A stretch of 56,228 nt of DNA from a virus. Lineage: Duplodnaviria; Caudoviricetes. Below the pieces are notes generated by a model. It was not told the DNA's origin. It saw nothing but the letters and a program-made list of their open reading frames with translations, and did no database searches. The stretch covers positions 1-56,228 of the IMG/VR virus record IMGVR_UViG_3300033076_000584; one strand, 5' to 3'. This document shows, one piece after another, positions 20,789 to 54,795 of the stretch (its first letter is position 1; the number at the start of each line of letters is the position of its first letter). Both the position numbers and the translations under genes were made by a program.

Positions 20789-22258
20789 TTAAACGTCGTA
20801 CTTCTCAGAAAGTTCCTCAAGCTCAACGTGGCCGCCCTTCTGCATCAAAGGCATCTCGCCCTTGAGCATCTTTTCCATGACGATCTCAGGGGACACACCC
20901 AAGCGGTCTGCCGTGTACTTGATGCGGGCTTCAAACGTCTTCAAGAAGGGCTCTGCAACTGAACCAAGACCAGTGTCCTCTCCGCCGCCGACCCACATAG
21001 AGGCCTGATATTGAGCTGGAGACATGCCAAGCTTTTTGGCCTGATCCTGCTGCCATGCCTCGTAATACCCATATTCGTTTTCATTCGGCATAGACGCCCA
21101 GAAATTGGGCCGAGCCACAGCTTCATCCATAGAGATTGAGCCAGACTTGAGCCAATCCTGCGGACGATAAGTTACCTTGGGCTTTGGATTGTCCAGCTTG
21201 CTGGTAAACTCATCAATATCAGCGCCTTGCATATTGGGATATTGGGCGAGCAAATCAGCAATGATTTTCTGCCGATCATTTGCTTCTGGCTTAACCAGTT
21301 CATCAAAAGACGTTGCCAAGAAACGCGGATCTTGACTGATGATCCCCGGCAAACGGAAATTGTGCGTATCAATCGTGGCAACTTGTTGGTTGCCTTGCAG
21401 ATTGCTGGAAAAGCTTGCAGGCTTAGGGTTGTCGAAGATGTTCCAGCCGCCCTCTTCAGCAATGTTGCGGGCATGCTTAACGTGGCTGCTTTGAGCCACA
21501 GAGCCATAGCCCGGCGCTGGCTTGTCAGGCACAGGGATGCCGTTTTTCAACAGATAGTTGTAATACGACGCCATGCGGATGTTGTCTTGAACCTTAGCGC
21601 GCGGGCTGGTTGCTGCGACAATATCCATTAAACGAGAGTATTCAGCCGGGGCGCGGTCTTGGCCAACAGATGAAACCAAACGACGATAAAGCGGATCGGT
21701 GTTGTACCATTCAAGGCCGCCACGCTCTGCGCCGCGCTCCACTGTTTCGTTAATTCCACGAGCCACATCTTCGTTGGCCAAGGCATCCACGATGCGCGCA
21801 GAAGGGCCACGAGGGGCTTGATAGCGTTCAATCTGAAACTGGGGAACATCAGGCACTTGGCGTAGTTTGCTATAATCAAACATGGTGCCAAGATTGCCTT
21901 CGTTCGCAGCACGCCAGTCGGAAAATGACGGGGCACTCTTGTCCTTGGTAGATGTCGCAGCAAATACGTCCGCCGCCAAATCACGATTGGTGCCAGCGCC
22001 AGTTTTTAGATAGGCTGGTGCTTCGACCTTAGGGGTCGAGGATTTTGTTGCTTTAGGCTTAGACGCTTTCGGCGCTTCAGCTTTAGCGACAACGCTTTTG
22101 ACGGCTTTTGCCTCAGGAACCTTTTTAGCTTCACGCTGTACAGCCTTGCGGATCATGGCCTCATCAGCCTGATCGCCAAGAGTTTCCATTACCTGCTTAA
22201 CGAGCGGGCGACCAAAGTCCTTGTAAAGTTGTGTTAGAAATTTTGATGCAGCGCTCAT
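20789..22258 (-). CDS. Putative virion-delivered protein with a DNA-glycosylase-like (HhH-GPD/DUF7178-like) domain
   Basis: GLEWY...AATSP....N...PK..SF..NL.G....TIDTH..R...Y...PAQYQA..W; last gene of the ejection operon. Confidence 0.5.
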   Translation of the reverse strand: MSAASKFLTQLYKDFGRPLVKQVMETLGDQADEAMIRKAVQREAKKVPEAKAVKSVVAKAEAPKASKPKATKSSTPKVEAPAYLKTGAGTNRDLAADVFAATSTKDKSAPSFSDWRAANEGNLGTMFDYSKLRQVPDVPQFQIERYQAPRGPSARIVDALANEDVARGINETVERGAERGGLEWYNTDPLYRRLVSSVGQDRAPAEYSRLMDIVAATSPRAKVQDNIRMASYYNYLLKNGIPVPDKPAPGYGSVAQSSHVKHARNIAEEGGWNIFDNPKPASFSSNLQGNQQVATIDTHNFRLPGIISQDPRFLATSFDELVKPEANDRQKIIADLLAQYPNMQGADIDEFTSKLDNPKPKVTYRPQDWLKSGSISMDEAVARPNFWASMPNENEYGYYEAWQQDQAKKLGMSPAQYQASMWVGGGEDTGLGSVAEPFLKTFEARIKYTADRLGVSPEIVMEKMLKGEMPLMQKGGHVELEELSEKYDV

Positions 22259-22788
22259 TTGCCGGATCTCCGCTTAACGGTGAAGCCACCCTTCTTATAC
22301 TGTTTTGCAGGCTTTTTCACGCCAAACTTAGAAACCGCCTGTTTTGCTTTGCCGATGGCAGCTTTTCCGTACTGGCCTGCCTTGTTGGCAACGCCATAAC
22401 CAAGGGCCGCAAGCACGCCTTCTTCTAACATGCTGCGCGGCAGATCGGCCAACCCTTCAGCCTCGCCAGCGCCATATGCAGCGCCCATAGCTATTTCAGG
22501 GGCATAACGAGCAAGACGCGGCGCGCGGGCGGCCAATTGAGCCATGCGAGCGCCACCAACACCGGGCACCATACCCGGCAGGATCGAACCAGCGCCCTCA
22601 AAGGCAAGCGCCTCATAAGGGTTGGCCTCTTCATAGGCCTTCATTTCGCGCCGGATGCGAGCAACCTCACGAGAATAGGCAGACGGATCTCGCTGAGCGA
22701 GAGCGCGCAAGCCAGCCTCAATCTCATCACCAAAGGCAAACGTCACCCCCTTGGCAGTGGCTCGAGCTCGATCCTTAAATCCGGGCAT
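22255..22788 (-). CDS. Putative internal virion protein, paralogous to the N-terminal module of 22788..25148
   Basis: GVTFAFGDEIEAGLR...Y......IR.....Y....P..AL.. Confidence 0.65.
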   Translation of the reverse strand: MPGFKDRARATAKGVTFAFGDEIEAGLRALAQRDPSAYSREVARIRREMKAYEEANPYEALAFEGAGSILPGMVPGVGGARMAQLAARAPRLARYAPEIAMGAAYGAGEAEGLADLPRSMLEEGVLAALGYGVANKAGQYGKAAIGKAKQAVSKFGVKKPAKQYKKGGFTVKRRSGK

Positions 22789-25148
22789 TACTGAGGCTCT
22801 CCCGTGTCTGTGATCGTTCCGCCACCAAGGCCGCCCTTCTCAGCGATGTAGCGCTTAAACTCTTCCTGCTCTTGCGGAGACAGCTTGGCAAAATCGTCCC
22901 AGAATTGTTTCATGGCCAGATCAGGATCAACGGCGGCCCCTTGAGCCCCAGCGGGCATTGCAGCCAAACCACTGACAGTGACGCCAGTTGGCTCCTCATC
23001 AAGAGAGGGAAGCTTAAATTCAACAGGCTCTTCTTCTGGCATTTCCTCGCCCGGAGACGGCGCAGAGATGCGCGCAGTGGCCGTGCCAGCCTTAGATGCC
23101 TTACGCTCCAATGCCTCGCTGGCGGCCTTCTGTGCGGGCGCAGCCTGCTCAATTGCTGTCAGAACCTCGTCGATCTCATCAGGAGATCCAGCACGCAGCA
23201 TCTTGGCAAGTTGATTGAAGGTAGCCTTAGAGACGTTCGCATTGCGCATATCGTTCACCGCACGCAGCGTCCGCATGGCAATCGTCATCTTGGGGCTTGT
23301 CAGAAGATCAACAGCATTGGCGACGTTGCCCATGCCAATTTCTTCCTCGAGAGCCTGCTTTTCAGCGGCGCGACCAAAGGTCTGGCTGCCCTTGGTGATG
23401 CGGTTGATGCTGTCAAACAGCTCGCTCTCACGCTTCAGCGCGGCCTCAAATACCTTAAACTCGCTCGGGTCCATCAATGCCTTGAGGGAGTTGCGCGTGT
23501 TGTCGTTCTCGATGATGTTCTTAGCAAAGTTCTTGCGGTTGGCCGTGTTCTCAAAGCCCTGCATGACGTGCTGCACATAGCCCGTTTTAAAGGCCTGAAG
23601 CTCGCCCGGAGACAAGTCTTTGACCGCCTTGCGCACTTCCTGCCAGCGCATCTTTCCGCCCTGACGACCAAGTTCAAGGGCTTCTTTGATCTCGATGTCG
23701 CCCTTGTATTGCTGGCGCGCAGCCTTGTACTCTTCAGGGCCGATCTCATCGAGGCGCTTCACAAACGCATCGCGGATGCCCTTTAGAGCCGTGGCGTTAC
23801 CGCCCTGACCGCTGGCATAAAGTTCGTTAACGCGGCGATCCAGAGACTGCTTGATCTGATCAAGCGTGCGCATGTCAGGCGCTTCGCGGCCGGTCCCCTT
23901 CAAACCAACAAGCGCGCCCTCTTCATTGAGGACAGGCTCAAAGATTTCCTTCAGCTTAAACTGCGAGGGATCTTCGCCGCGCAGCAGCGCAGCAGACTGC
24001 TCACGGCGCACGTTTTCAAGGGCGCTCTGATAGGCTCCCCGGATGTCTGGGTCGTTCAAGATTTGCATGATGCGGGGATCTTTGACCTCAACATCCTTCC
24101 AGCCAGCGCCATAGTTCGCCTCAGCGTTGCTGCGCAGCGTCTTGAGGATCTGCTCTTCAGAAGCAAAATAGTCAGGCGTCGGGATGGCCGTGCGGACCTT
24201 TTCCTGCACGCGACCCTTTGCGTTCACCTGCTGCCCGATCAGACGTTCTGCAAGTTGCGCGCGCTCGTCGCTCGGGACATTGACAACGGTTTCTGTAAGC
24301 CGCTCCATCTCAGGCGTGGCAGTGCCCAGAACCGACGGGATGCCGTACTTTTGCTCAAGCTCGAGCAGTTGGCGAAACTCTTCTGGGGCCAATTCACTGC
24401 GAGACATGCGCTCAGCAAGGATGGATGCTGCACGACGGCCAGCCTCTTCTTCGCTCAAGCCAGCACCACGCGCAGCGATAACGTCGCGGCCAAAGTTGAC
24501 ACCCTTACCGATGCCATAGGCACCAGCGCCGAAGCCAGCGCCAAAGACAGTGTTCAAAGCAGCATTGGTCAGACGGCTTTCCAGATCTTCCCCTGACCCA
24601 GCTCCAGAAATAGCGCCCTGCGCAGCACCGCGTGCCATAACCCTCTTAACAGGAGATGCAATTTTGCTGATCCCTGTCGCAGCCTCAAAGCCACGGCCAA
24701 GCACATTGACGCCCGGAATGAAGGCAGACCCGATGCCGCCAGCGACATTCAGGCCCAGCGCAGTGCCGGGATAGGCTTCTGAGAACTTGGCGCGGCTCTG
24801 CCGAATGTCGCGCAAAATCTTGTCATAGTCTTCACCAGTTGCGGCAGCACGAACAGCCGCCTCTGCCTCATCGGCAAATTCAAAGGCAGCGCCACCGGCA
24901 ATTTCACGAGCGCCACCAGCCAAGGTTTCCCCAAGGCTCAGTTCAGGCGGCTCTTTCTCAAACGACGGCGGTTGCTCAGGATTGATGTTACCCCCCGGCG
25001 AGCGGAAGGTAGACAGCATCTGATCCAACTCTTCATCGCTGACATTCGCCAAATCAGATGGCGGAGCAGTCTTCGAAAGCAGGGCATCAAGCTCTTCATC
25101 AGAAAGCTGAGAAAGAGGCTTGTTCCACGCTGCAAGGGCGTCTGCCAT
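22788..25148 (-). CDS. Large ejection/internal virion protein
   Basis: 786 aa, helical, with G/A-rich hydrophobic segments; podovirus-like position after the nozzle. Confidence 0.65.
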   Translation of the reverse strand: MADALAAWNKPLSQLSDEELDALLSKTAPPSDLANVSDEELDQMLSTFRSPGGNINPEQPPSFEKEPPELSLGETLAGGAREIAGGAAFEFADEAEAAVRAAATGEDYDKILRDIRQSRAKFSEAYPGTALGLNVAGGIGSAFIPGVNVLGRGFEAATGISKIASPVKRVMARGAAQGAISGAGSGEDLESRLTNAALNTVFGAGFGAGAYGIGKGVNFGRDVIAARGAGLSEEEAGRRAASILAERMSRSELAPEEFRQLLELEQKYGIPSVLGTATPEMERLTETVVNVPSDERAQLAERLIGQQVNAKGRVQEKVRTAIPTPDYFASEEQILKTLRSNAEANYGAGWKDVEVKDPRIMQILNDPDIRGAYQSALENVRREQSAALLRGEDPSQFKLKEIFEPVLNEEGALVGLKGTGREAPDMRTLDQIKQSLDRRVNELYASGQGGNATALKGIRDAFVKRLDEIGPEEYKAARQQYKGDIEIKEALELGRQGGKMRWQEVRKAVKDLSPGELQAFKTGYVQHVMQGFENTANRKNFAKNIIENDNTRNSLKALMDPSEFKVFEAALKRESELFDSINRITKGSQTFGRAAEKQALEEEIGMGNVANAVDLLTSPKMTIAMRTLRAVNDMRNANVSKATFNQLAKMLRAGSPDEIDEVLTAIEQAAPAQKAASEALERKASKAGTATARISAPSPGEEMPEEEPVEFKLPSLDEEPTGVTVSGLAAMPAGAQGAAVDPDLAMKQFWDDFAKLSPQEQEEFKRYIAEKGGLGGGTITDTGEPQ

Positions 25149-25840
25149 TACTTACCTCCGCGACGGGCCTTTTCCGCCATAAGCTGGTCATAGGAATACG
25201 GTACTGTGCCCATACGCGCTTGCTGTCGAGCGATTTTAACAGCCTGCGAGACCTTATTGGCATAGGTTTGCGCAGCCTGCCGGAAGCGGTTCTCAGACGT
25301 GCTTGTACGCATTGTCTGAAGAGCCTTCATTGCGCCTTCCGCTTCCTTCTCAGACATGGCACCAAGCCCCTTGAGGGCTTCAATCGCTTGCGGGAAAGCT
25401 TCGCCCTGCGCTTGTTCAAGAAGGTTAGCAAAGTCTGCTGCCGAAGAGGCGGGGAAGTTTCCGATGCCAAATCCACCCTTCCACGGCTCAGGCAGACCAA
25501 CAGCCGCGCTCATGCCGCGATGCTTCATAAGCTGGCCAAGGGTGTTCAATGCGTTCTTTGCAGAACTTTCCACCTTGGGCAGGCTAAATTCAGCCTTTGC
25601 AGAGCTCTCGCCAATAACCTTGCCACGAGCAGCTTGGCGCTGGGCTTCGGCCTGCTCAGCGGGCGTAAGACGCTTCTGAGGCGGGTTTTCACGCAGGCGT
25701 TGAAGCTCAAGGGCGGCGGTCCGATTACGTAGATACTGACCCTCAAGATCAGCGAGGCTTTTGTTTTGCGCTGTGGTCGCCTTTTTGGAGATTGGAGCGT
25801 GGTACTTCGGATCGCTGAAATTAACAGAAGTGCCCATCAC
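25148..25840 (-). CDS. Putative ejection protein
   Basis: ALKGLGAMSEKE motif; translationally coupled. Confidence 0.55.
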   Translation of the reverse strand: MMGTSVNFSDPKYHAPISKKATTAQNKSLADLEGQYLRNRTAALELQRLRENPPQKRLTPAEQAEAQRQAARGKVIGESSAKAEFSLPKVESSAKNALNTLGQLMKHRGMSAAVGLPEPWKGGFGIGNFPASSAADFANLLEQAQGEAFPQAIEALKGLGAMSEKEAEGAMKALQTMRTSTSENRFRQAAQTYANKVSQAVKIARQQARMGTVPYSYDQLMAEKARRGGK

Positions 25841-26643
25841 TTGCCTCCTTTGGCGTAACCAATAAGCCGCCGTGCTTTTTGTTCAAAGCGCGGCCCAAAA
25901 GTGCGAATAAATTCATCTAGGGTTTCTTGCGTCGGAGAAGCGGTTAACGCAGCCCATGCAGCTTCGTTTGGCTGCACGATCTTCTCGCCGGTTTCTGGTT
26001 CGTATGAAACACCATCTTCAACAATAACAGATTTGATTGGCTTCGGCTTGTTATACGTGGCCATCAAGCGCTGAAGATCAATCGCCGTCTTGATGTCACC
26101 CTGCGCCAGTGCGGCGCGCTGCTTAGCAAGCGCCTGAAGGGCTTCCGCACGTTGTTCTTCGCCAGTACGCTTTAGCTCTCCAAACTTTTGGAGGACGGGC
26201 AGCACGTTACCCATAGTGCCGGAGAAGCCGCGCACGCTTGTCGGAGCGAAGAACGCAGAAGACAGAGCAAGAAGCTTTTCAGTCTCGCTCGGGCCATAGC
26301 GACGCTGCCTAATCTCAGCAGCAAGATCGTCGTAATACTTGCGCTGCTCAGCGGCGTTGGCAAGGATAGCCTGCGAGATCTGCTTAGGATCTGTCAGGTT
26401 CATGGCGCTCAAGCCACCAATGGAGGCATAAGCGTTAACAGCGTCATCATCAGCAGCCGCGTTGTCTGCGGCGTCTTCGTTGGCCACGTTCAGATCTTCG
26501 TCTTCCATAGGACCACCCACTTGCTGTTCTCGCGCCAAACGCTCAATAACGTCTTTCTTGGCCATCATAGCCTGTCTGACTGGCGCATAGAAAGGGCTAG
26601 TCAGAAATTCCTCTTCGCTCTTTGCGCCAAAAAGATTGCTCAT
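25837..26643 (-). CDS. Putative ejection protein
   Basis: 268 aa helical protein in the operon. Confidence 0.55.
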   Translation of the reverse strand: MSNLFGAKSEEEFLTSPFYAPVRQAMMAKKDVIERLAREQQVGGPMEDEDLNVANEDAADNAAADDDAVNAYASIGGLSAMNLTDPKQISQAILANAAEQRKYYDDLAAEIRQRRYGPSETEKLLALSSAFFAPTSVRGFSGTMGNVLPVLQKFGELKRTGEEQRAEALQALAKQRAALAQGDIKTAIDLQRLMATYNKPKPIKSVIVEDGVSYEPETGEKIVQPNEAAWAALTASPTQETLDEFIRTFGPRFEQKARRLIGYAKGGK

Positions 26644-27830
26644 CAGCCGAATACATCCTTTGCTGCCTTAATGATAGCAGCGCCACCAGTGAGCGCGCCA
26701 GCGACCTGAGATGCCGTTGAAGCCGGGTACTCAGGGCGATAGCTCGTCGGTTGGATGCCGTATTCCTGCGTCGCTGTCGGGACGCCACCAGCAACCGCAC
26801 CCATCGTCTGGGCCATCTGGCTGATCTGCTGTTGCGGGTACGCTTGACGGCGCTCCCACTCGCTCCGGGCAAAGTCGAGGTTCTGCTGAGCGAGCTGTTG
26901 CTGCTGTGCGCCAATCTGCTGCAAGGCACCGGCCCCTGCCAGTTCCTGCTGCTGACGCTGCTGAGCGAGATTGCCAAGTTGGCCCGCCGCGCTCAGAATA
27001 TTCGCCGTATCTGCGCCGTAGAGGTTGCCCATCTGCTGTCCAAGAGCACCCATTTGCTCACCAGCTCGTGCCAAAGCACCCTGCTGCTGGAAGCCCAAGC
27101 CACCGGCCGTCTGAGCCAACTGTGCCTGACGCTCAAGATCGGCCTGAGCCAAACCTGCTGCTTGACCATATCCCTGTTGCAATGCTTGCGCCTGCTGTGC
27201 GGAAATGCCCTCCATAGTGTCACGAAGGGCGCGGCCCACCAATTCAGCCTGCCGTGTGCCGCCAAACTGACCAGCAGAAATCATCTTGTCGCTAATGGCA
27301 GGCAAAAGCTGCTCTTGCAGTGTCCGTGCGCCCAGCGCCCCGATCCGGCCAATAACGGCCTCCTGATACGGGTTCATGTACTGGTTGATGTTCTGAACAG
27401 CCGTCTGGCCAGCCTGCCCCAAATAGGGCTGCGCCATGCTCAATCCAGTCGGCGTCGCGCTCTGCGCTGCATACTGTCCAGCTTGCTGCAATGCGGGCTG
27501 TGCAGCACCCAAGGAGGAACGACCGAATACGTTCTGCGTTTGCTGAGACGCCTGACCCAATTCAGGGCGGAAGGTAAACGCACCCTCACGGGTCGCCTGA
27601 AAGCCCTTCTGCTGATCGGGGGCAAAGTCAGCAAAGCGCGGGATCGCCTTACCAGAGGCATCGACGTACTCTTGGAAGGGTCGTGCCGCCACAGCTTGCT
27701 GGTTAGCCAAAACGTCCATGGCATAGTTGGAATACCACTCAGGCAGGATCGTCTGCTTGGTAATGTCCGTCAGCGCAGAACCGGCAGGAATATCTTGCCC
27801 TTCAGCCATGAATGAGGTGGTGTCAGCCAT
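26643..27830 (-). CDS. Putative DNA-ejection/pilot protein (Gln/Ala/Gly-rich)
   Basis: YMNPY...GQFGGTRQ...L..IGAQQQ pattern. Confidence 0.65.
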   Translation of the reverse strand: MADTTSFMAEGQDIPAGSALTDITKQTILPEWYSNYAMDVLANQQAVAARPFQEYVDASGKAIPRFADFAPDQQKGFQATREGAFTFRPELGQASQQTQNVFGRSSLGAAQPALQQAGQYAAQSATPTGLSMAQPYLGQAGQTAVQNINQYMNPYQEAVIGRIGALGARTLQEQLLPAISDKMISAGQFGGTRQAELVGRALRDTMEGISAQQAQALQQGYGQAAGLAQADLERQAQLAQTAGGLGFQQQGALARAGEQMGALGQQMGNLYGADTANILSAAGQLGNLAQQRQQQELAGAGALQQIGAQQQQLAQQNLDFARSEWERRQAYPQQQISQMAQTMGAVAGGVPTATQEYGIQPTSYRPEYPASTASQVAGALTGGAAIIKAAKDVFG

Positions 27831-30004
27831 TAGATACGTCCTCCAGACATGTACGCTTCAGGGTGTTTTGCGTTCACGCTGAACTTACCCTTTGCCAAGT
27901 TCTTGCCCTTATGTTTGCGGACTTTCACCCGCATTTCATCAAGTTTCTTTGCGCCAGCCTTAGAGGAACCATCCCCAAGGAGAGCGACCGTTTCGGCGTC
28001 AATAACATACTCGCCATCAGAAAGCACCGCCGGAATGTCATCCGAACGACCAGTGCCGGGCCCTTCAACCGCAAAGCTTTCACGAGACGACCCGCGCGAA
28101 TATCCCATATCCCCGCCATGAGACATCCCAACAGGCTGTTGGGGGATGCCACTGACAGCGCGATACGTTTCTTCACCCAGTGTCCCGGGGCCATAACCAG
28201 CATAAGGCGACGTAGCCCGGCTCAGATCTGCACCAGCCGGAATGTCCATGGCCTGCCCCATGCCATAACGATACCAGTCAGTGACGGGACGTGCAGCCAA
28301 CGTGCGATCAGCAGCAGTGCCGCCAAGGCCACCAACGGTGAAGGCCCCGCCCTGACCGGGCGTTGGAAGCTTGGCAGAAAATGCTGGATTAAGCCGCCCT
28401 GTCGATGAGTATTTACCAGCAGAGCCGCCACCCTTGCTGCCACCGCCAAAAATGTTTCCAGCCAGACCAACGCCCAAGCCAGCAAGTTTGAGGTAATCCG
28501 CGATCTTGTCAATCGTGCTCTTCTCAACAGGCTTATTCGGATCTTCAGTAAATGCGGGATTGGTCTGCTGAAGAACAACATCTGTTACGCTTGGGAGCAT
28601 AAACGGCGTGTCTTTAGCAGTTACGACAATCTCATCTTGCCCCGTCTCTGCATTTTTCTTTGTAACCGGCTGTGTATCAGGCGGTGTGTAAGTTGGATAC
28701 TTGCCTGCAATTGCAACCTGCAAAGGAGATGTGGGAAGGTTGATAGGAGTGCGATTACCCGTGACAATGATCTCTTCATTATCAGCAAAATTCTCTTGCT
28801 CATCAACAGGCCGCGTGTCGCGCACGTTCTCGCCGCCGCTATACTGAACGTTTCCAAACAGATTGTTTGTTGGCGGGACGAAGGGAAGTTTACCTGTCTG
28901 AGCGGTGACAACGGTTTCAGGAAGCTGATCAATCCCGGCAACCTGATCGTTAATCAAGTTGCGATTTGAGTATTTTGCAGCCGAATTAGCAACCGATGGA
29001 ATGGTGCTCAAGGCACTCGAAACCACAGGAGCCGCCAAATTGCGAATACCCGTGACGACAATGTCACCCGCCGCCGGAATTGCCGATGTGACGGCGTTTG
29101 TGACAGGAGCCGTGGCACCAGCGCTTGCGCCCGATGTCGGAGCAAGGAATTTACTAACGCCAGAGGCATCCAAAGCGCCAGCCGTAAGACCAGAAATGGC
29201 AGCAGACTTAGCAATGTCGCCAATTGACCTGCCTTGCAATGCTCCCGACAGCGCCGTGCCGCCACCTGCGGCAACCCCTGCTGCAAGTGCACTGCTACCC
29301 AACGCCTTTGCAAGCCCAAGTGGTCCAATCGCTGCGCCCGCAATCATCGGCAATGAGATGTCCAAGAACGTCCCAAAACCGCTTTTCTCAGGCTTATGCT
29401 CAGTGATTGTCTGCCAATCACCGCCCGGAGACGCGCCTTGAAGGATGAAGTTAGCCTTCTTGCCCTCTTGGCCAAACATGCCAGCGGCAGCCTTGGCGGC
29501 AAGAGATCCACCCTCATAGCCCATGCCAGAGGCAACAACTTCGCCAGTGTCGCGGTTGATTAAGCGCACTTCCTGATCTGGCCGAACGGCAAAGCGGCCA
29601 ATGTCCCACGCCTTTTCTCCCGTCGGATCACCAAACGAGGCGGCAAACTGGTTTTCAAAGTCAGGCTTTGCAGCCAGCGCCATAAGCTCTTCGTTAGTCA
29701 GGGGACGTGCAGCGCCTGTCTGACGGTCGGTTACCGAAAAACCATAAGGCGACACCTCATAGGGGCCGCCCTGCGTTTTTGAGAGGTACTCATCAACCCT
29801 GTTAAGATAGGCCTGCGCCTCGGGAGAATAATCAAAACTCTCAGCAGTCAGATCCTCGAGATCCGGTGACAACTCACCCTTTGCGCCAAATGCTGCAAGA
29901 CGCGCCTTGTTCACGTAATCTTGGGGCTTGTTGTACATCCCCCGAGAATAGGTCAGTTCCGGGTTCTGGACGCTTATAGCAAAGGGATTTTCCGGGGCTG
30001 CCAT
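27830..30004 (-). CDS. Internal virion protein
   Basis: C-terminal GPGTGRSDDIPAVLSDGEYVIDAETVALLGDGSS domain; internal ExIVVT(G/A) repeats. Confidence 0.65.
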   Translation of the reverse strand: MAAPENPFAISVQNPELTYSRGMYNKPQDYVNKARLAAFGAKGELSPDLEDLTAESFDYSPEAQAYLNRVDEYLSKTQGGPYEVSPYGFSVTDRQTGAARPLTNEELMALAAKPDFENQFAASFGDPTGEKAWDIGRFAVRPDQEVRLINRDTGEVVASGMGYEGGSLAAKAAAGMFGQEGKKANFILQGASPGGDWQTITEHKPEKSGFGTFLDISLPMIAGAAIGPLGLAKALGSSALAAGVAAGGGTALSGALQGRSIGDIAKSAAISGLTAGALDASGVSKFLAPTSGASAGATAPVTNAVTSAIPAAGDIVVTGIRNLAAPVVSSALSTIPSVANSAAKYSNRNLINDQVAGIDQLPETVVTAQTGKLPFVPPTNNLFGNVQYSGGENVRDTRPVDEQENFADNEEIIVTGNRTPINLPTSPLQVAIAGKYPTYTPPDTQPVTKKNAETGQDEIVVTAKDTPFMLPSVTDVVLQQTNPAFTEDPNKPVEKSTIDKIADYLKLAGLGVGLAGNIFGGGSKGGGSAGKYSSTGRLNPAFSAKLPTPGQGGAFTVGGLGGTAADRTLAARPVTDWYRYGMGQAMDIPAGADLSRATSPYAGYGPGTLGEETYRAVSGIPQQPVGMSHGGDMGYSRGSSRESFAVEGPGTGRSDDIPAVLSDGEYVIDAETVALLGDGSSKAGAKKLDEMRVKVRKHKGKNLAKGKFSVNAKHPEAYMSGGRI

Positions 30005-45026: not shown

Positions 45027-45503
45027 TTATGGAGCCACCCAGTTACCAGCTTCATCCTTGCGAGGGAAGCGAGGAAATGGAGGCGTGATAGGATCGACGC
45101 TTTCAAGAACCCATGCCTCATGAGCTACCTTAGCCGCCTGCCAAAGATCGACGGCCTCGCCTGCTGCGATCATTTCGTTGCAGATGTTGATCCGCCCGTC
45201 ACGTATGTCGTGAGCCATCGCTTCAAGCTCCGCCGTTCTTACAACGCGCTCTTCTTCGGTCATAAGGCGCACGCTGTGTACGTCCTTCACAACACCGTCC
45301 ACCCATTGGTAGCTAACGCCTTCATACACCTCGTAAGCGCCAAGTGCAGGCTTATCTACACGGATGAACTTAGCAAAGGTTTCTGGCAGGTTCTCAGTGT
45401 CCACGTCGGGGAAAGCTGCGCGAAAATTCTCCGCAAAGATGGGATGCTCATAAGGCTGCCCGTCACGGATTTGGATGTAAAGCTCGAGATCAGTGTGCTC
45501 CAT
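45027..45503 (-). CDS. Tail-fibre assembly/chaperone-like protein
   Basis: LYIQIRDGQP.EHP....NF..AFP.VD..NLP; follows the fibre genes. Confidence 0.55.
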   Translation of the reverse strand: MEHTDLELYIQIRDGQPYEHPIFAENFRAAFPDVDTENLPETFAKFIRVDKPALGAYEVYEGVSYQWVDGVVKDVHSVRLMTEEERVVRTAELEAMAHDIRDGRINICNEMIAAGEAVDLWQAAKVAHEAWVLESVDPITPPFPRFPRKDEAGNWVAP

Positions 45504-46688: not shown

Positions 46689-47839
46689 TAGAGGTTTCCT
46701 GTATTGGTAGACGGGAATTGGCGTGAACTACCGGGCCAGATGATACGAACTGCGCCAACACCACCAGCCGCGCCACAGTAGCTGTAAGAGTTTACACAAT
46801 CGCAATAGTAGAACGACATGCCACCGCCGCCGCCATATGCACCGCCAACGCCCGTTGCGGCTGCAAAGGAGTTCCCCAGACCGCCATTAGCGCCACCAGA
46901 GCCTCCGCCCCCTTGACCGGCCGCGCCGCCGTAAGACGTGCCCCACGGACCGTTATTGAGCGGCACGCCATTAGCACCTTGGCCGAGAATACCTACGCCG
47001 CCGCCGCCACCACCAGATCTGTTGTTGTAGAACCCAGACCCGCCGCCAGAGCCGCCCCCGCCAGTACCGGCATTTGGCCCAACGCTGTAACCATATCCTG
47101 CGGTGCCACCAGCGCCAGCGTAACCACCAGCGCCGCCACCGCCGCTCCACGAACTTCCAACCCCACCGCCGTTACCGCCGCCGTCGCCAGTGTAAGTGCC
47201 ACCACCGGTCGCAGCCGGGCCCCCAATTCCTTTGCCGCCCTTAACTACACAGGCGCTGACAAAGTAACTATCGTTCCCGTTAGACCCGTAAGTATATGCT
47301 GGGGGTATTGCACCGCCAGCACCGACAACAACCGTATAAGAATTGCCCGGCGTTACAGAGTAGTTATTTTTATACCCCAGACCTGCGCCACTTCCGCCAA
47401 AGATAAAGCCACCGCTACCCCCGCCGCCAACAGCGACGACTGAGACGGAAGTAACACCTGCGGGAGCGACCCAGCTATAGGTACCCGCAGCGGTATACGC
47501 CTGTTGCCCGATTGCTGCGGGAGTAACGCTACTCGACGTCGCGCTATAAGGGCTTGAGCCGAAGGAGTTTGTTGCAAAAACGCGGAAAGTGTACGGAGTG
47601 CCTGTCGTTAAGCATCCAACTGTAATCGGAGATGACGCGCCGGTGACCATGACGCACCCGGGCGATGAAACAGCAGTATAACCGGTAATTGCGCTACCAC
47701 CCACACAAGACGGCGCAGTAAACGGGACCGAAACGGAAACTGCGGATAAAATTGTGGGCGTGCCAATGGTCGGCGCATTTGGCACCTTAAGTGGATTATA
47801 GCCCGGTCGAATGAAGCCGCCTTGATACCGTCTGGACAT
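46688..47839 (-). CDS. FN3 + glycine-rich tail-associated protein (paralog 1)
   Basis: Same architecture; both end RQFPST.TGNL. Confidence 0.8.
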   Translation of the reverse strand: MSRRYQGGFIRPGYNPLKVPNAPTIGTPTILSAVSVSVPFTAPSCVGGSAITGYTAVSSPGCVMVTGASSPITVGCLTTGTPYTFRVFATNSFGSSPYSATSSSVTPAAIGQQAYTAAGTYSWVAPAGVTSVSVVAVGGGGSGGFIFGGSGAGLGYKNNYSVTPGNSYTVVVGAGGAIPPAYTYGSNGNDSYFVSACVVKGGKGIGGPAATGGGTYTGDGGGNGGGVGSSWSGGGGAGGYAGAGGTAGYGYSVGPNAGTGGGGSGGGSGFYNNRSGGGGGGVGILGQGANGVPLNNGPWGTSYGGAAGQGGGGSGGANGGLGNSFAAATGVGGAYGGGGGMSFYYCDCVNSYSYCGAAGGVGAVRIIWPGSSRQFPSTNTGNL

Positions 47840-47848
47840 CGCTCATCC

Positions 47849-48244
47849 TTAGCTGAGTTCTTCGTAGCTCACGCTATAAGTAATGCCGCTCGCCGTACCA
47901 GACGTGACGATGATGCTGGTGCCTTCTTCGAGATAGATCTGCGTGGTCTTGTCCACAACGATCAGAGACGCGTCCGCCGGAACCGAGATGGTCGAAGCAA
48001 TCGGGTAGGCAGTGCCGCCCGTAGGGGCCGACCCTTGGGCGACACCGCCATTCGTGTAAATCGACACCGTGCAGTCAACTGCATTCGTGCCGTTCACGTT
48101 AGCCGCCAAGATTTGGTTGATCTTGAGAACCTTGCCGCTTGAGGCAGCGTTTGGAAGAAGCACGACAGCAGTAGTTGCCGACGGGGTGAGATACGTCGTT
48201 TTGCCTGTGGCGGTCGTGAGACCAAGGATGTTTGGAGCTGCCAT
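47849..48244 (-). CDS. Small beta-sandwich tail protein
   Basis: MAAPNI...N.ASSGKV.KIN.I..ANV.G...I.VPADASL....K...IYLEEG...SYEE. Confidence 0.7.
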   Translation of the reverse strand: MAAPNILGLTTATGKTTYLTPSATTAVVLLPNAASSGKVLKINQILAANVNGTNAVDCTVSIYTNGGVAQGSAPTGGTAYPIASTISVPADASLIVVDKTTQIYLEEGTSIIVTSGTASGITYSVSYEELS

Positions 48245-48254
48245 AATTCAGTCC

Positions 48255-50636
48255 TTATAGCCCGAAGATGAAGTTTATGCCAGTAACCTTGGCTTGGGAA
48301 ATACCTGATGGTGCAGGAGCCTGAGAGACCCACGTCGTGCCATTGCTGACAAGGACGTTACCGCTTGCGCCCGGGGCCACCGTCTGCACTGCGCTGGTGC
48401 CATTACCGAGGATGACGTTGTTCGCCGCAAGCGTTGTCGCGCCCGTGCCGCCATTAGCGACAGGCAGCGTGCCAGTGACGCCTGTGGTCAGGGGCAAGCC
48501 GGTTGCGTTGGTCAGCGTGACAGTGGAGGGCGTGCCGAGGTTTGGCGTTGTAAAGACCGGAGAGTTGGTCAGCGCAACATCGCCAGTGCCACTTACAGCA
48601 TAGCTGGTGCCCCACGCAGATCCTGTCGAAACTGCGATGCCAGCGCCGGGGTAGACCATGCTGCTAGGAGCCGGGCCCCATGATGCCGTTGTGCCGTTCG
48701 AGGTCAGAATGTACCCATTAGCACCAATAGCCAGACGTGTGGCGCTGTTGGCACCGTCGCCAATGATCAGATCGCCGGTCGATGTGATGGGCGACAGCGC
48801 GTTAAATGCCGCAGTTGCCGTCGTCTGGCCTGTGCCGCCATTGGCAACGGATACTGGCGTAGACAGGCTAAATTGATTGCCGGTTAGAGTTAGACCGGTG
48901 CCCGCCGTGTAGACAGGGGCAGACGACACCTGCACAAAGTTGATCGCAGTCGTGCCGAAGGTGATTGTGCCCTGCGTATTGCAGACATACGTCTCGCCAG
49001 CACCAGTCGCACCAGACGTGACAAAGAAGGCGTCGCCCTCGCCAAGGCTGTTCGGGCTTTTCAGCGCATAGGTGTCGGCGTCAGTGGCGCGGGTCAGAAC
49101 CCAAGCGACAGAGCCGCTGCCGACCGTCGTGACGGTGTAGACGCCGTTCTCGTAAGCGTTGGTCTGGTTATAGACCAAAATACGGTCACCAACCTGCGCC
49201 ACAGTGCCGTCCGGCGTAAACGCGCCAAGAGTACCTGCGTTGGTCAGAGTAGCACCAACACCCGCCGTGCCGTTGTTGTACGTGGCGTTGAGGTTGCCTG
49301 TGGTGTTCGGCACCTCATACTTGACGGGCGTGTGGTACGTGATGCTCGATGCGACCAGAGTGTCGACATACTGCTTGGTCGCCACTTGCAGCGCCAAAGT
49401 CGGATCAGCAGCAACGGTAACTTGCGTCAGCGACGGCGACATCGTGTAAGAAAAAGATCCGCCGCTGGCAGACAGAAGGCCGGTCCCTATCGCAAGCGTG
49501 CCGAGCGATGTGGTCGAGTTGGCAAACAACAGATCGCCAACTGCATAGCTTGTGAGGCCCGTGCCGCCGTTCGTTGCAGCCAGTGTGCCACCAATGGTGA
49601 TCGTGCCAGCAGCCGTGATCGGGCCACCCGTGGTCGTGAGGCCAGTCGTGCCGCCAGACACGTCAACAGACGTAACGGTGCCCAAACCAGAGATAGTGGT
49701 CCATTCGACATCGGTTGCAGTCGAGTTGAGCGTCAGCGCCTTACCAGCGTTGCCAGTGTAGCTTGGCAGCAAGTTAACACGAGCGCCTGCCGCCGTTGAA
49801 GCCCCAGTGCCGCCACCAGCTATGGAAACCTGCCCAGTCAACACATAAGCGTTGCTGACGACGTTGAACGACAGGCCGGTGACGCCGCCTGAAATATCGT
49901 ACCAAGCTGGCGCGCCGAGGGGGCCGCCTGACACAAAAATCTGATTGAGGTTGCCGGTATTAGACAGGGCCGTCTGCGAACCTGTAGAATAGAAGATGGC
50001 ACCGGCAGCAGGCGAGAGCGAGCTACCGGTGCCGCCACGAGACATGGGGAGCACTCCAGACGTCTCAGTGGTATCGGATAGATCGACAGCCGGGTGAACG
50101 TGGTCGTCGCGTGCTGCAAAAGTGCTTGACCCGGCGACAGCGACGCCGCCCGGCAGCGGAGTTGCTGCGGTCAAAGCAAGGGAGATAGTGCGGTCAGCGG
50201 CAAGCGTGCCACCGCCAGACAAGCCATTACCAGCAATGATTGAGCGGCTCGTGGGAACGTACCCGCTAAGGCTGATCGGAGTGGTAGAGGCAACCTCTAC
50301 GCGGCCCTTTGCGTCAATCTGTAGAACCGGGATTTCAGAAGACGAGCCGTAGGTGCCAGCAGTGACGCCGCTATTAGCAAGCTGAGTATAGCCCACCCCA
50401 CCATCAGCAATAGAAATGACGCGGTTAGCAGTAAGGTCGCCACCGCCAGTGAGGCCACCGCCACCAGTGATTGTGCGGCTTGACGGGACAGCGCCGACAG
50501 ACGCGATGTTTCCGAAGCGGACCTTGTAGGTGACGCCGTTAAGAACATAAGGCAGATACCCATCTTGGCTCAGACCGTCGTACTCGGTGAGCTGCGAAAT
50601 GCGTGTCGGAACCAGATTTGAGGGAACTGTTGTCAT
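48255..50636 (-). CDS. Long tail fibre protein
   Basis: 793 aa; repeated L..xxGGTG shaft motifs, ATKQYVD, DRILVYNQT...NGVY.V.....WVLTRATDAD. Confidence 0.85.
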   Translation of the reverse strand: MTTVPSNLVPTRISQLTEYDGLSQDGYLPYVLNGVTYKVRFGNIASVGAVPSSRTITGGGGLTGGGDLTANRVISIADGGVGYTQLANSGVTAGTYGSSSEIPVLQIDAKGRVEVASTTPISLSGYVPTSRSIIAGNGLSGGGTLAADRTISLALTAATPLPGGVAVAGSSTFAARDDHVHPAVDLSDTTETSGVLPMSRGGTGSSLSPAAGAIFYSTGSQTALSNTGNLNQIFVSGGPLGAPAWYDISGGVTGLSFNVVSNAYVLTGQVSIAGGGTGASTAAGARVNLLPSYTGNAGKALTLNSTATDVEWTTISGLGTVTSVDVSGGTTGLTTTGGPITAAGTITIGGTLAATNGGTGLTSYAVGDLLFANSTTSLGTLAIGTGLLSASGGSFSYTMSPSLTQVTVAADPTLALQVATKQYVDTLVASSITYHTPVKYEVPNTTGNLNATYNNGTAGVGATLTNAGTLGAFTPDGTVAQVGDRILVYNQTNAYENGVYTVTTVGSGSVAWVLTRATDADTYALKSPNSLGEGDAFFVTSGATGAGETYVCNTQGTITFGTTAINFVQVSSAPVYTAGTGLTLTGNQFSLSTPVSVANGGTGQTTATAAFNALSPITSTGDLIIGDGANSATRLAIGANGYILTSNGTTASWGPAPSSMVYPGAGIAVSTGSAWGTSYAVSGTGDVALTNSPVFTTPNLGTPSTVTLTNATGLPLTTGVTGTLPVANGGTGATTLAANNVILGNGTSAVQTVAPGASGNVLVSNGTTWVSQAPAPSGISQAKVTGINFIFGL

Positions 50637-52042: not shown

Positions 52043-53113
52043 TTAACACATTCCCCCGCCGTAATACTTTTTCATCAGGCCACCCATAGCCATTCCCTGC
52101 GGTGCAGACATAGGCTGAGGGGTGGTTCCCTGCATCGGCACATTGCTAAGCGTCAACCGTTGTTGCTGCGGGACGTTGCTTAGCGTCATGCCTTGCGGCT
52201 GCCTTGCCATTCCCAGAGACTTACCCAGAGCCACGCCTTGCGCGTTCTGGGGTATTTGCTGTGCGGGTGCTGGCGGAGCACCATAAAAAGCATCCGGCCC
52301 CGTTGGGCGATACGGAACGTTAGGATCAACCATAGGCTGCGGGGTCGAGCCGCTATACTGGTTTAGAAACGCCATCGACTTGTTCAAAATGTCGGCGTGC
52401 TGCTCTGGCGTTGAATTAGGATTGAGCTGCAAATTGCGTAGAATGCCTTGATACATCCTAAACTCATCAGGAGACACGCCACTGTTAAACAGGCCTTTAC
52501 CAGATGCGTTCATTTCAGCGGCGCGTGCATTAAATGCCTGCAACGCTGCATTCCGATCAAAAGATGTCGGCGCTGGCTGCGCAGGTGCTGTCCGCGTAGC
52601 AGGCATACTGGTGATCGCAATCTGTTCTTCAGGCGTCAGAGTGCGCGGCGCAGAGACCCAATTGCTTGGCATAGCTTCTGCATTGCGGAATTGCTCAGCA
52701 AGCTTAGGAAGAATGCCACCCATCGCCGCAAGGTCGTTAGGATTAACGCCGAACATATTGCGCATACCGCCCATACCGCGCGGACCGCGAAGATCTCGTT
52801 CAGTTGTCGTATTTACTGGGTTGTAAATATGCGGCTGAGCCATGGGCCCTTGTTGATACGGCTGCGGGATGGCAGGCATAACGAGCATCCCATTCCCGGT
52901 ATTGGTCGGCCGCGTAGGGCGTTGCCCGCTAAGCATCTGACCAAGGTTGGCAAGCATGTTAGACGGCGTCATGCCACTCTGCGGGTTGGGCCGGTTCATA
53001 AGCGCCATGAGACCGCCGCCAAGTTGGGGCTGTTGTGCAGGCATCTGTGCGTTTTGCTGTGGAGCAATCCGCCCTAACACCTTGCCGAGGTTAGACTTCA
53101 TGATCATTTGCAC
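52043..53113 (-). CDS. Pro/Gln/Met-rich low-complexity protein, probably virion-internal
   Basis: 356 aa; ends GMAMGGLMKKYYGGGMC. Confidence 0.6.
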   Translation of the reverse strand: MQMIMKSNLGKVLGRIAPQQNAQMPAQQPQLGGGLMALMNRPNPQSGMTPSNMLANLGQMLSGQRPTRPTNTGNGMLVMPAIPQPYQQGPMAQPHIYNPVNTTTERDLRGPRGMGGMRNMFGVNPNDLAAMGGILPKLAEQFRNAEAMPSNWVSAPRTLTPEEQIAITSMPATRTAPAQPAPTSFDRNAALQAFNARAAEMNASGKGLFNSGVSPDEFRMYQGILRNLQLNPNSTPEQHADILNKSMAFLNQYSGSTPQPMVDPNVPYRPTGPDAFYGAPPAPAQQIPQNAQGVALGKSLGMARQPQGMTLSNVPQQQRLTLSNVPMQGTTPQPMSAPQGMAMGGLMKKYYGGGMC

Positions 53114-53802
53114 TTACCCTTCGGCATGGCGGCCAGACCGCCCTTGTTCAGAGGGATCGAGAGGCGCTTAGCAGGGCCATACATCGGCTTCGTGCTGGTT
53201 GACGGCACAGCCTTCTTGACGGCCATCGGCTTGATGGCTTCTTTCTGCATCACGCGCATTTCTTTGTCGCTCATAGCGCCCATACCGCGCTTGCGCTCGC
53301 TTGCCATGCGCTCCTGAGCCATGCGGATGCCCTTCTTGCCCATGGCCATTTCGTCACGCGTCATGCGCGCGGCCAGAACGTCGTCAGCCTCGGCCGAGCG
53401 CAGCATCTTCATTTCGCGATCAGTCATAGCGCCCATGCCACGCTCAGGGCCCTTGCCGATAGGTGTGCCCTCACCACGCTTCACGCGCGGGATCTTGGCA
53501 CCGGCAGCGCGGGCTTCGTTCAAAGCGATGGCAACAGCCTGCTTCGTGCTCTTGACCTTCGGGCCTTCCTTCGAGCCGCTGTGCAGCTTGCCTTCGGTGA
53601 ACTCTTTCATCACCCGGCCGATCTTCTGCTCAGCCTTCTTAACATGACCGCCCTTGGCATACTTGGCGACCATGGCAGGCTTGCTCATGGGGCCTTCACC
53701 ATCGGCCATATCATTACGGCTGACAGTCATGCCGCCACGGGCAAATGTGCGGCCCGCAGTGGTGGAATAGTTGGTCTTGGTCGTGTTCTTAAAACCGTCC
53801 AT
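53104..53802 (-). CDS. Basic Lys/Met-rich protein with DUF6496-like segment
   Basis: KIGRVMKEF..GKLHSGS..GPKVKS.KQAVAIAL.EAR; duplicated RGMGAM(T/S)D.EM. Confidence 0.7.
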   Translation of the reverse strand: MDGFKNTTKTNYSTTAGRTFARGGMTVSRNDMADGEGPMSKPAMVAKYAKGGHVKKAEQKIGRVMKEFTEGKLHSGSKEGPKVKSTKQAVAIALNEARAAGAKIPRVKRGEGTPIGKGPERGMGAMTDREMKMLRSAEADDVLAARMTRDEMAMGKKGIRMAQERMASERKRGMGAMSDKEMRVMQKEAIKPMAVKKAVPSTSTKPMYGPAKRLSIPLNKGGLAAMPKGKCK

Positions 53803-53803: not shown

Positions 53804-53980
53804 TTACTTACCTTTCTTGCGGGCAACAGCCATATTATCAATGAGATTGGGGTAGGGGCGACCGGCAGCAGCAGCGCGCGCCTTGGCAGCCTTTTTCTTC
53901 TTTACGGACAATGACTTAGGCTTGCCGAGATCCTTCGGCCGCTTCTTGTCCCAAACAGGCTTTACAGCAAAGTCGCTCAT
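53804..53980 (-). CDS. Small basic protein (58 aa)
   Basis: AKARAAAAGRPYPNLIDNM motif. Confidence 0.65.
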   Translation of the reverse strand: MSDFAVKPVWDKKRPKDLGKPKSLSVKKKKAAKARAAAAGRPYPNLIDNMAVARKKGK

Positions 53981-54795
53981 CAGCAGTCCCACTTTCTAAG
54001 AGACAGGGCCTTGCGCGTTGGACGGCCCTTCTCGTCCTTCATTGGCCCGGGCATGCCGCTCATCCGAGCACAGAAGCTCTTGCGACGAGCGGCCGCCTTG
54101 GGAGACTTTTTGGCCTGCTTGGCCGAAACTGGTGGCTTGATGTCGTGGCCCTGCGCCTTCAGGCTGGCACGTCCCTTGGCGTTCAATCCGCCCTCAGGGT
54201 TCTTGCCTTCCTTGCGCGTCCATGCGCCGCCCTCTGCCATGGCCAGACCGCCTCGAGCATGGGGCTGTTTACCAACCATCTCGCGCAAGTGCTGATTGCG
54301 GGTGCTAACGAAAGCAACGTCACGCTCATGGTCAACGGGGTTGTTGCGCAGAGACGTGGCAAGGCCACCCTCTTGGAATTGCTTGCGATACTGTATGCCA
54401 CCAGACACGCCTGCGCCCGGCTGATACTGCAACCCTGCGCTGAAGGGGCCGCGCTGGTACTGAGCTTGAAGTTGAGCAACGTCCATGCCGGGGCTCACAG
54501 AGCCGCCAACATTTAGCTGACCGCCTGCAACTGGCATACCGTAATTTGCAGACGCGCCGCCGAAACCCTGCGGCCCGACCATTGCGTTACCGCTCAACAC
54601 GCCGGGGCCCACCTGCTGCATGTCCGAAAAAGACATGCCTTGCGGGTTTAACTGGGGGTTGCCGGGGATCTGCATCGACTGCTGATTTGGCGGAGGGCCA
54701 AGCGGCTTTAGACGCAAATTAAGGGCGTCATTGATCTCATCACGGGCTTTCGCCAGTCGCGCTTCAAACGGATAATTAGGCGGGCCAAAGGGCAT
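53980..54795 (-). CDS. Protein with C-terminal DUF6321-like basic domain
   Basis: WTRKEGKNP.GGLNAKGRAS...RRKSFCARM.GM...SLRKWDC. Confidence 0.7.
   Translation of the reverse strand: MPFGPPNYPFEARLAKARDEINDALNLRLKPLGPPPNQQSMQIPGNPQLNPQGMSFSDMQQVGPGVLSGNAMVGPQGFGGASANYGMPVAGGQLNVGGSVSPGMDVAQLQAQYQRGPFSAGLQYQPGAGVSGGIQYRKQFQEGGLATSLRNNPVDHERDVAFVSTRNQHLREMVGKQPHARGGLAMAEGGAWTRKEGKNPEGGLNAKGRASLKAQGHDIKPPVSAKQAKKSPKAAARRKSFCARMSGMPGPMKDEKGRPTRKALSLRKWDC

Follow-up and report, generated by a model that had tools for sequence, protein, structure and literature searches.

In bacteriophage T4 the internal proteins IPI-III and Alt carry a capsid targeting sequence, an N-terminal leader of about 10 residues that the prohead protease gp21 removes by cutting at L/I-x-E. 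Encapsulin cargo-loading peptides are short, mostly terminal, have hydrophobic and Gly positions, and are carried by the unrelated cargo of an HK97-fold shell. Processing sites with a Gly-Gly (GG) are found in ubiquitin-like precursors, with the clan CE proteases of adenovirus and African swine fever virus, and in double-glycine bacteriocin leaders; they have a hydrophobic residue at P4 (L/M/I-x-G-G), and bacteriocin leaders have others at P7 and P12. Outside T4, we know of little that explains by what means a short-tailed phage chooses its internal cargo and loads it. Here we describe a short peptide, which we call the seam, in the virus record IMGVR_UViG_3300033076_000584 (Caudoviricetes). 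The window, that is, the whole stretch of DNA that was analysed, is 56,228 bases long, is the entire record and is listed as 100% complete. The seam has the consensus [F/Y/M/L]-A/K/Q-x-G-G-x-[V/I/A/T], often with a short acidic or basic amphipathic tail after it, and it is a portable peptide, selected at the protein level, on non-homologous late proteins. The cargo at stake includes ejection proteins, anti-defence effectors and polyvalent proteins, and the last of these are predicted to be packaged in the head, injected and proteolytically processed (Iyer, Burroughs, Anand, de Souza and Aravind 2017, PMC5512222). A seven-residue code on unrelated cargo would be a handle on cargo loading that can be mutated, fused to reporters and searched for in virion mass spectra, and it could be used to pick out, in uncultured phages, the genes for packaged proteins.

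The seam was first noticed in a sequence-only reading of the window, which listed 11 hydrophobic-x-x-GG strings in six open reading frames (ORFs). All 11 were found where they had been placed, in six minus-strand ORFs. When every Gly-Gly in the 68 called proteins was catalogued (244 sites), four extra copies were added, namely, IAEKGGL and three C-terminal copies that overlap Shine-Dalgarno sequences, and thus the list was incomplete. The copies lie at residues 33-40, 61-67 and 140-192, or 7-19 residues from the C-terminus (Table 1). The seam proteins of the window are single-domain, and in them the seam precedes the domain or sits at a terminus.

As far as sequence comparison goes, conservation in relatives is the decisive support for the motif being real. 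The comparison set consisted of related viral contigs and database homologs, and the locus sets, which were collected through homologs of window proteins, are not an unbiased sample. For the DUF7178 protein 120 homologs were listed (42-89% identity), 25 without a C-terminal anchor were set aside and 95 were scored. The C-terminus P-[LMF]-[LMF]-A-x-G-G-x-V is kept in these, with P in 95/95, GG in 95/95 and V in 90/95; P4 is Ala in 81/95, the residue at P5 is hydrophobic, and a tail of 8-34 residues follows. In the DUF6496 family, Y-A-x-G-G immediately before the domain is invariant in 12/12 aligned rows (Y48 A49 G51 G52), and the same holds for G246 G247 in ...GGL(A/S)xMPK... at the C-terminus, likewise in 12/12 rows. 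The DUF6496 relatives have one to nine copies each, and stand-alone DUF6496 proteins of 52-54 amino acids (aa) start where the seam GG aligns. At least one copy is present in 24 of the 25 distinct locus proteins that are DUF6321 homologs. The GG before the C-terminal domain of the ejection protein that resembles tape measure proteins (TMPs) is invariant in 5/5 aligned homologs, with variable flanks, and the homolog in Caulobacter phage RW keeps it as NMARGGYA. Both homologs of the 52043 product end in ...AMAMGGL(L/M)xKYYGG(G)xC, which makes 3/3 with the window protein, and the sole homolog found of the 22255 product keeps KQYKKGGMAVK. The weakest member is IAEKGGL of the 22788 product because two related-locus homologs are without a copy.

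Chance was assessed by 500 within-protein shuffles of the 68 called proteins (16,413 aa, called by a codon-usage heuristic). The loose pattern hydrophobic-x-x-GG occurs 72 times against 51.4±6.6, a count reached in 1/500 shuffles, and this excess is inflated because of glycine runs (GG itself, 244 against 190.9). Hydrophobic-x-[KRE]-GG occurs 12 times against 4.7±2.2 and a pattern refined post hoc on the data 8 times against 1.2, neither count being reached in 500 shuffles. In the late proteins of the window [FYM]xxGGx[VIALT] occurs 8 times against 5.9±2.4, and 125/500 shuffles reach this. A weight matrix trained solely on outside proteins has its five top window hits all in three post-capsid proteins, and its hit counts over any fixed threshold do not exceed shuffles. 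The comparison of motif frequency with composition that the sequence-only reading had proposed gives an outcome that depends on the pattern: stricter patterns and related loci exceed shuffles but the [FYM]xxGGx[VIALT] and weight-matrix counts do not. That reading had also not noticed the motif in the early proteins; there is indeed none there, but this is uninformative because these proteins comprise only 2,714 aa, in which 0.41 copies are expected. One genome cannot establish a seven-residue motif.

Three C-terminal GG copies are GGA-GGN codons placed 6-8 nucleotides (nt) ahead of the overlapping start codon of the next gene. Those of the 25148 and 25837 genes were not counted as seam copies; the C-termini of their homologs are variable (...YLGGK, ...YLGGR, ...KAGGQ, or none). 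The third, Y[ML][SD]GGR[VI]-stop of the 27830 family, may serve both as seam and as Shine-Dalgarno because the peptide is kept in 5 relatives including RW, always with GGAGG or GGGGG before TAATG. The other 12 copies have GGC/GGT codons, differ in the codons of the K, R or E beside the GG, and have no start codon downstream, and therefore the Shine-Dalgarno explanation and a DNA-level repeat are excluded for them. The KGGHV copy is one of these, as had been claimed. Since the Gly, Lys, Arg and Glu codons differ between copies, selection is at the protein level, and a DNA-level repeat or recombination joint was ruled out on the same grounds.

The seam is limited to cargo-type proteins, abuts domain starts and lies in low-confidence AlphaFold2 stretches. 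Longer DUF6321 proteins (476-1,669 aa) have other Pfam domains, among them ART-PolyVal, PBECR, Zeta toxin, DUF5661 and DUF2213. Among the 120 long DUF6321 proteins listed, [FYM]xxGGx[VIALT] occurs 65 times against 13.3±3.9 (maximum 25 in 200 shuffles), and these copies are spread over 27 of the 120. One such protein (P0078) has seams in all four gaps between or after its DUF6321, methyltransferase, PBECR5 and ART-PolyVal domains and none within a domain. Many polyvalent seams run on into an amphipathic helix, [FY]A[DK]GGxV[DE][DE]A[LI]RLA; the 38-aa extended seam of another protein (P0077) gave no match by tblastn against 50,697 phage records. A seam lies 1-6 residues upstream of 45/162 DUF6321 domain starts and 2-7 residues upstream of 24/30 DUF6496 starts, at preferred spacings in both families.

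Copies in the related loci exceed the number expected from shuffles in homologs of the DUF6496 protein (58 against 3.0), of the DUF6321 protein (37 against 2.4) and of the ejection-module proteins (11 against 4.0±2.2, reached in 2/300 shuffles). The 189 proteins of the head and tail core in these loci are not enriched (21 copies against 21.4), and neither are the 456 proteins without a label (26 against 21.7). Among 229 copies in non-redundant locus proteins, 21 are at most 15 residues from the C-terminus and 33 at most 30 residues from the N-terminus. Where a head module of the window type is seen (at least two head genes), the seam occurs in 17/21 DUF6321 and 16/16 DUF6496 proteins; where no head gene is seen it occurs in 6/38 and 3/10, and some of these seam-positive loci are probably truncated loci of the same lineage. 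Loci with long DUF6321 genes also hold homologs of the window capsid. The long gene directly follows an SU10-type portal, assigned by Pfam, in one locus (L092), and in three others (L089, L100 and L169) it follows a 762-806-aa gene in the same position. DUF6321 proteins of other phage types, namely, S-RIM8 gp114 and 334-499-aa proteins in L097, L104, L109-L111 and L120, have no copy, and in Kuravirus SU7, a tractable relative from Escherichia coli, none that is typical was seen in the genes for the head and for ejection. The accessible part of the SU10 paper (PMC9509320) makes no mention of cleavage or of a protease.

AlphaFold2 of the window DUF6496 protein (36-row alignment) gave confident helices at residues 56-99 and a predicted local distance difference test (pLDDT) value of no more than about 50 where the seam copies lie. 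The model suggests that the seam stands out as a conserved stretch within a linker of low confidence that is probably disordered; with pLDDT of about 50 at the copies, an integral part in the DUF6496 fold is unsupported. The true start of this protein is probably Met14 (ATG at 53802), and the N-terminus MDGFK(N/D)(T/S)TK (53763-53802), which is near-invariant in relatives even where the remainder diverges, may act as another conserved signal at a terminus. Against the sequences of solved structures, 0 hits at E<=1 were obtained with the DUF6496, DUF6321 and TMP-like proteins. The KGG stress-protein repeat is a Pfam family; a Pfam scan of the motif proteins (E<=0.01) found DUF6321, DUF6496 and DUF7178 alone and no such repeat. 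Two other candidates were set aside. Mimicry of the GroES mobile loop (phage GroES ...TAGGIILTG) does not fit residues after the GG that are mostly polar-Val and not a hydrophobic triplet, and modification of Lys by the 2OG-Fe(II) oxygenase encoded at 44333-45004 does not fit a position before the GG that varies between K, E, Q, D, S, R and H.

The tails after the seam have features of their own. In DUF7178 the tail is either V-D-x3-L-A-x-K-Y or basic, and a Cys is present in the last five residues in 18/95 homologs against 0.23 expected, Cys being 0.05% of these proteins. Only 3/68 called proteins of the window have a Cys in the last three residues, and these are the adjacent post-capsid seam proteins (52043, 53104 and 53980); in all three it lies within the last two residues, in the DUF6321 protein it is the last residue, and it is the only Cys in two of them, the third having one other. 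The C-terminal Cys could be a tether or a metal site.

The seam-bearing proteins are very probably carried inside the head and ejected by this podophage lineage. The cargo set would be made up of polyvalent proteins, their apparent single-domain counterparts (DUF6321, DUF6496 and 52043-type) and part of the ejection module. The sequence-only reading had left it between a portable tag for head loading and a mark for cleavage at the GG; that the peptide is portable, selected and on cargo-type proteins has stood, but the choice between the two is one of likelihood, and presence in the virion is, like the packaging of the proteins, the cutting of the seam and the identity of the cutter, something that we infer. 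The reading that we favour, if tentatively, is that a protease recognises the seam and cuts after the Gly-Gly, because of its position at junctions, its preferred spacing and the match to the boundaries of stand-alone domains. Cutting at the seam would separate modules or remove short terminal tails, and such tails may first serve in assembly before they are lost, like the targeting leader of the T4 internal proteins. As no protease gene is recognisable, the seam would be read by a phage protein not yet characterised or by an enzyme of the host, and if the cut site is true a protease beyond current profile libraries would be implied.

Several results weigh against processing. That no prohead protease is recognisable, as had been claimed, was borne out with PHROGs, Pfam and NCBIfam: PHROGs and Pfam showed no protease family in 47 window proteins, and no T4 gp21-type protease and no C39, clan CE or deubiquitinase-like domain in window proteins, and at relaxed thresholds no protease was found among 12 (Pfam) or 15 (NCBIfam) head-module, post-capsid and ejection-module proteins. 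Pfam also gave no peptidase in ten related-locus proteins, seven of them seam-bearing, and among the Pfam accessions of the 27 seam-bearing long proteins, by what we take their identities to be, none was recognised as a peptidase. Some copies are 3-4 residues from the C-terminus (YKKGGSVK-stop, MMKKGGKAK-stop), so that cutting there gains little, and others overlap in tandem (FAKGGYAEGG, YMGGGMVGGYAKGG). The tails seem to have a role of their own, as is suggested by the DUF7178 tail, which has conserved features and is Cys-ended in 18/95 homologs. Several ejection-module proteins of the window phage have no copy besides the Shine-Dalgarno overlaps. Enrichment within the window is weak and depends on how the pattern is defined. 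Cultured relatives are not enriched (Pelagibacter phage HTVC023P, 4 against 4.8; Roseobacter phage CRP-901, 4 against 4.3), although HTVC023P has typical terminal copies, and in RW the copies are in essentially one virion protein; the TMP-like protein of RW has two. Among other cultured phages, YAKGGAV, YASGGMI, YAEGGAL and YADGGFL occur in annotated proteins of Planktothrix phage Pra-JY27 / Pag-Yong1 and Synechococcus phage MinM2.

It is possible, though we think it less likely than processing, that the seam is an uncleaved handle for packaging or tethering, which together with the tail docks cargo on a component of head assembly and remains on the mature protein. The dock might be the inner face of the capsid, the scaffold, the portal or the 1081-1620 product, in the manner of an encapsulin, with several copies giving avidity and the Cys perhaps acting as a covalent or metal-mediated tether. 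This would explain why the seam is confined to cargo and ejection-type proteins with no enrichment in the head and tail core, why terminal positions are frequent among the 229 locus copies, why the DUF7178 tail is conserved and Cys-ended in 18/95, why the three post-capsid seam proteins are Cys-ended, and why copies can lie 3-4 residues from the end or overlap in tandem. It also suits the finding that the seam-bearing DUF6321 and DUF6496 proteins accompany one type of head module and that DUF6321 proteins of other phage types are without a copy. However, if loading is the purpose, one polypeptide does not need a seam at each of its domain junctions, the seam is missing from many of these phages' ejection proteins, and the RW capsid is 86% identical (over the aligned C-terminal 113 residues) and yet RW has almost no copies. 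Binding is itself a proposal. Co-folding, which was run without controls, of a relative's capsid (137-row alignment) with the C-terminal 139 residues of its scaffold-like protein and the first 60 residues of its DUF6496 protein, with two seams, gave a score of 0.00 and a mark of 0.32, which speaks neither for binding nor against it. For the 1081-1620 product, one of the partners named in the sequence-only reading, AlphaFold2 (16 sequences) gave a mean pLDDT of 59.7, Foldseek against the PDB found no match at E<=0.001, and the ESM Atlas matches were unnamed viral clusters only; this 179-aa protein, encoded between the scaffold-like and 470-1051 genes, has invariant H62, E84, E103, E112, H131 and H132. 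By analogy with T4, most of the facts would agree with a combination of the two, in which targeting by the tail comes first and cutting at the seam follows.

An unlikely explanation is that the seam is a passive Gly-Gly hinge or helix cap that is inherited with the modules it flanks and has no dedicated reader, and which may aid threading through the tail channel. Copies in a low-confidence linker directly before helices, the preferred spacing to the first residue of the helix or domain, and the continuation into an amphipathic helix in polyvalent proteins are what such a hinge would give, but the conservation of P, GG and V in 95 DUF7178 homologs exceeds what a hinge needs, at a site that has no domain downstream, the aromatic/Met and Ala positions are kept too, and the peptide is common to non-homologous proteins. 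We consider it a little less probable still that the seam and tail anchor cargo inside the procapsid, covalently or via a metal, and that the cargo is freed at the Gly-Gly by an unrecognised protease or by reduction in the host cytoplasm, so that one seven-residue code would serve all cargo of a widespread and mostly uncultured podophage lineage; the anchor in this proposal is the short tail, in many cases with a single Cys at its C-terminus, and the cargo is effector and ejection proteins. Least of all do we believe that there is no real feature, only Gly/Lys/Met-rich composition and Shine-Dalgarno sequences in the 3' ends of upstream genes, for although three C-terminal copies are GGAGG-type Shine-Dalgarno sequences, the tagged proteins are Gly-rich with GG over-represented and two window-only tests are not significant, the other copies are GGC/GGT without a start codon downstream, the aligned sites are kept in 95/95, 12/12 and 5/5, in DUF7178 among homologs of 42-89% identity, and there is a roughly five-fold excess in 120 outside proteins.

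Table 1. Positions in the window of the seam copies, of the genes that carry them and of the head module (stop codons written as "stop")
Feature	Position (nt)	Strand	Remarks
Head module	1..5919	-	accompanies seam-bearing proteins in related loci; candidate seam readers here
Major capsid gene, N-terminal half	3-455	-	
Conserved head-module proteins without assigned function	470-1051 and 1081-1620	-	
Acidic coiled-coil scaffold-like protein	1635-2588	-	
GroES homolog	2617-3045	-	part of the conserved head module of the lineage
SU10-type portal	3391-5919	-	
DUF7178 protein, 489 aa	20789..22258	-	Pfam PF23802; last gene of ejection-type module
MQKGGHV (in PLMQKGGHV)	20825-20845 (core)		residues 472-478 of 489, DUF7178 protein; 14-residue tail after it
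177-aa protein	22255..22788	-	matches phrog_5880
YKKGGFTV (in C-terminal QYKKGGFTV)	22276-22299		residues 164-171 of 177
786-aa protein	22788..25148	-	phrog_5880
IAEKGGL	22827-22847		13 residues from C-terminus of 22788-25148 product; missed by the sequence-only reading
...RRGGK-stop	25151-25168	-	gene 25148-25840; codons GGA GGT AAG TAA TG; Shine-Dalgarno
...YAKGGK-stop	25840-25857	-	gene 25837-26643; codons AAA GGA GGC AAG TGA TG; Shine-Dalgarno
TMP-like ejection protein, 724 aa	27830..30004	-	resembles tape measure proteins
YMSGGRI-stop	27833-27853	-	C-terminus of 27830 product; Shine-Dalgarno of next gene
MSHGGDM (in GMSHGGDM)	28106-28126		residues 627-633 of 724; just upstream of conserved 88-aa C-terminal domain
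Pro/Gln/Met-rich low-complexity protein, 356 aa	52043..53113	-	C-terminus ...MAMGGLMKKYYGGGMC (nt 52049-52093)
MAMGGLM and YYGGGM			residues 341-347 and 350-355 of 356, 52043..53113 product
DUF6496 protein, 245 aa	53104..53841	-	Pfam PF20106, E 1.4e-11
LNKGGLA	53131-53151		residues 231-237 of 245; 11 residues from C-terminus ...MPKGKCK
YAKGGHV	53641-53661		residues 61-67 of 245; immediately precedes DUF6496 helices
FARGGMTV	53722-53745		residues 33-40 of 245, DUF6496 protein
Lys-rich small ORF, 62 aa	53804..53992	-	between DUF6321 and DUF6496 genes; no seam in window
DUF6321 protein, 271 aa	53980..54795	-	Pfam PF19846, E 1.4e-24, residues 197-269
MAEGGAW	54220-54240		residues 186-192 of 271; abuts DUF6321 domain start
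HARGGLA	54241-54261		residues 179-185 of 271, DUF6321 protein
FQEGGLA	54358-54378		residues 140-146 of 271, DUF6321 protein
Major capsid gene, C-terminal half	55766..56227	-	

The genome around these proteins is that of a podophage with almost all late genes on the minus strand. A relative's 305-aa capsid aligns with residues 1-151 at 3-455 and with residues 153-305 at 55769-56227. The major capsid gene (minus strand) is thus divided between the two ends of the record, from which it follows that the genome is complete and circularly permuted; one codon of this gene is made of bases 2, 1 and 56228. The capsid belongs to a large family of phage capsid proteins of about 304 aa, with 3,091 cluster representatives at E<=0.001. 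PHROGs and Pfam assign the small and large terminase, the portal, a GroES homolog, an SU10-type adaptor, an endolysin, and laminin-G and glycine-rich fibre proteins, and they show genes of ejection type in one block (20789-30004). Among named phages, the nearest relatives are the Caulobacter phages RW, KcrB, RLK and GB2A (portal 68% identical); CRP-901, HTVC023P and Planktothrix phage Pra-JY27 are remoter. The window and RW have in common the head module, the adaptor, the nozzle and two ejection proteins, and the three low-complexity post-capsid genes of the window are not shared with RW. One of these, the 52043..53113 gene, codes for a protein with no match in Pfam, PHROG or NCBIfam. The small Lys-rich ORF next to them is matched by 34 locus proteins, of which 7 carry the motif (e.g., FKKGGLAVK, FAKGGKIKP).

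Some neighbouring features were observed in passing. The 177-aa and 786-aa products (22255-25148) match overlapping parts of the phrog_5880 profile and may be paralogs, or a gene that was duplicated and split. The C-terminal domain of the 27830..30004 protein is common to siphophage tape measure proteins; the last 88 residues (27830-28120; ...GTGRSDDIPAVLSDGEYVIDAETVALLGDG...) share about 73% identity with the homolog in RW, and the same domain recurs within Arthrobacter siphophage tape measure proteins. A 42-aa ORF at 3255-3383 (...RMAMGEMPKVPSMPKTPA) lies immediately behind the portal gene, is 98% identical in one relative (L008) and resembles the MPK-rich tails of seam proteins; in several relatives a long polyvalent gene is in its position instead. 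The mobile-loop region of the GroES homolog reads ...KKKTAGGIILTG. The 2OG-Fe(II) oxygenase gene lies near two glycine-rich fn3 fibre-like genes (44333-47839), with a 158-aa gene (45027-45503) between, and the late region of HTVC023P has three such oxygenases. Megablast of 45504-50636 of the window against phage records gave no match.

In the library that was searched we found no literature on DUF6321, DUF6496 or DUF7178, and no description of a seam peptide among the papers listed on capsid targeting and ejection proteins; searches with the seam strings gave, among the papers listed, nothing related to phages, as judged on titles and abstract openings. The T4 capsid targeting sequence, to which the sequence-only reading had likened the motif, is similar in kind: a short portable peptide on unrelated head-internal proteins, tied in T4 to proteolytic removal. 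The analogy fails on position, however, because most copies here are internal or C-terminal, and the seam has a Gly-Gly core and no recognisable prohead protease. Terminal copies, such as an encapsulin-type cargo-loading peptide would have, exist in DUF7178, in the 22255 and 52043 products and at the DUF6496 C-terminus, but internal and tandem copies are equally common here, at junctions among other places, the consensus is another, and binding to the shell is hypothetical. With known Gly-Gly sites the seam shares a hydrophobic residue upstream and, with ubiquitin precursors, short extensions after the GG, but in the seam an aromatic residue or Met is at P5 and Ala, in most copies, at P4. Close to the seam are also the polyvalent proteins themselves: the long seam-bearing DUF6321 proteins share with them ART-PolyVal, PBECR, Zeta-toxin and methyltransferase domains, and the seam lies between independent domains as expected of a junction motif. 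For processing, the accessible text of the polyvalent paper (PMC5512222) proposes built-in zincin-like metallopeptidase (MPTase) domains, whereas no peptidase domain was seen here, and the same text describes no junction peptide, with 0 occurrences of 'linker' and 'glycine'. In the window, unlike in the polyvalent proteins, the seam is found on separate small products and ejection proteins and not in one giant protein. What is new is the seam on stand-alone and ejection-module proteins, the conserved C-terminal site of DUF7178 and the Cys-ended tails.

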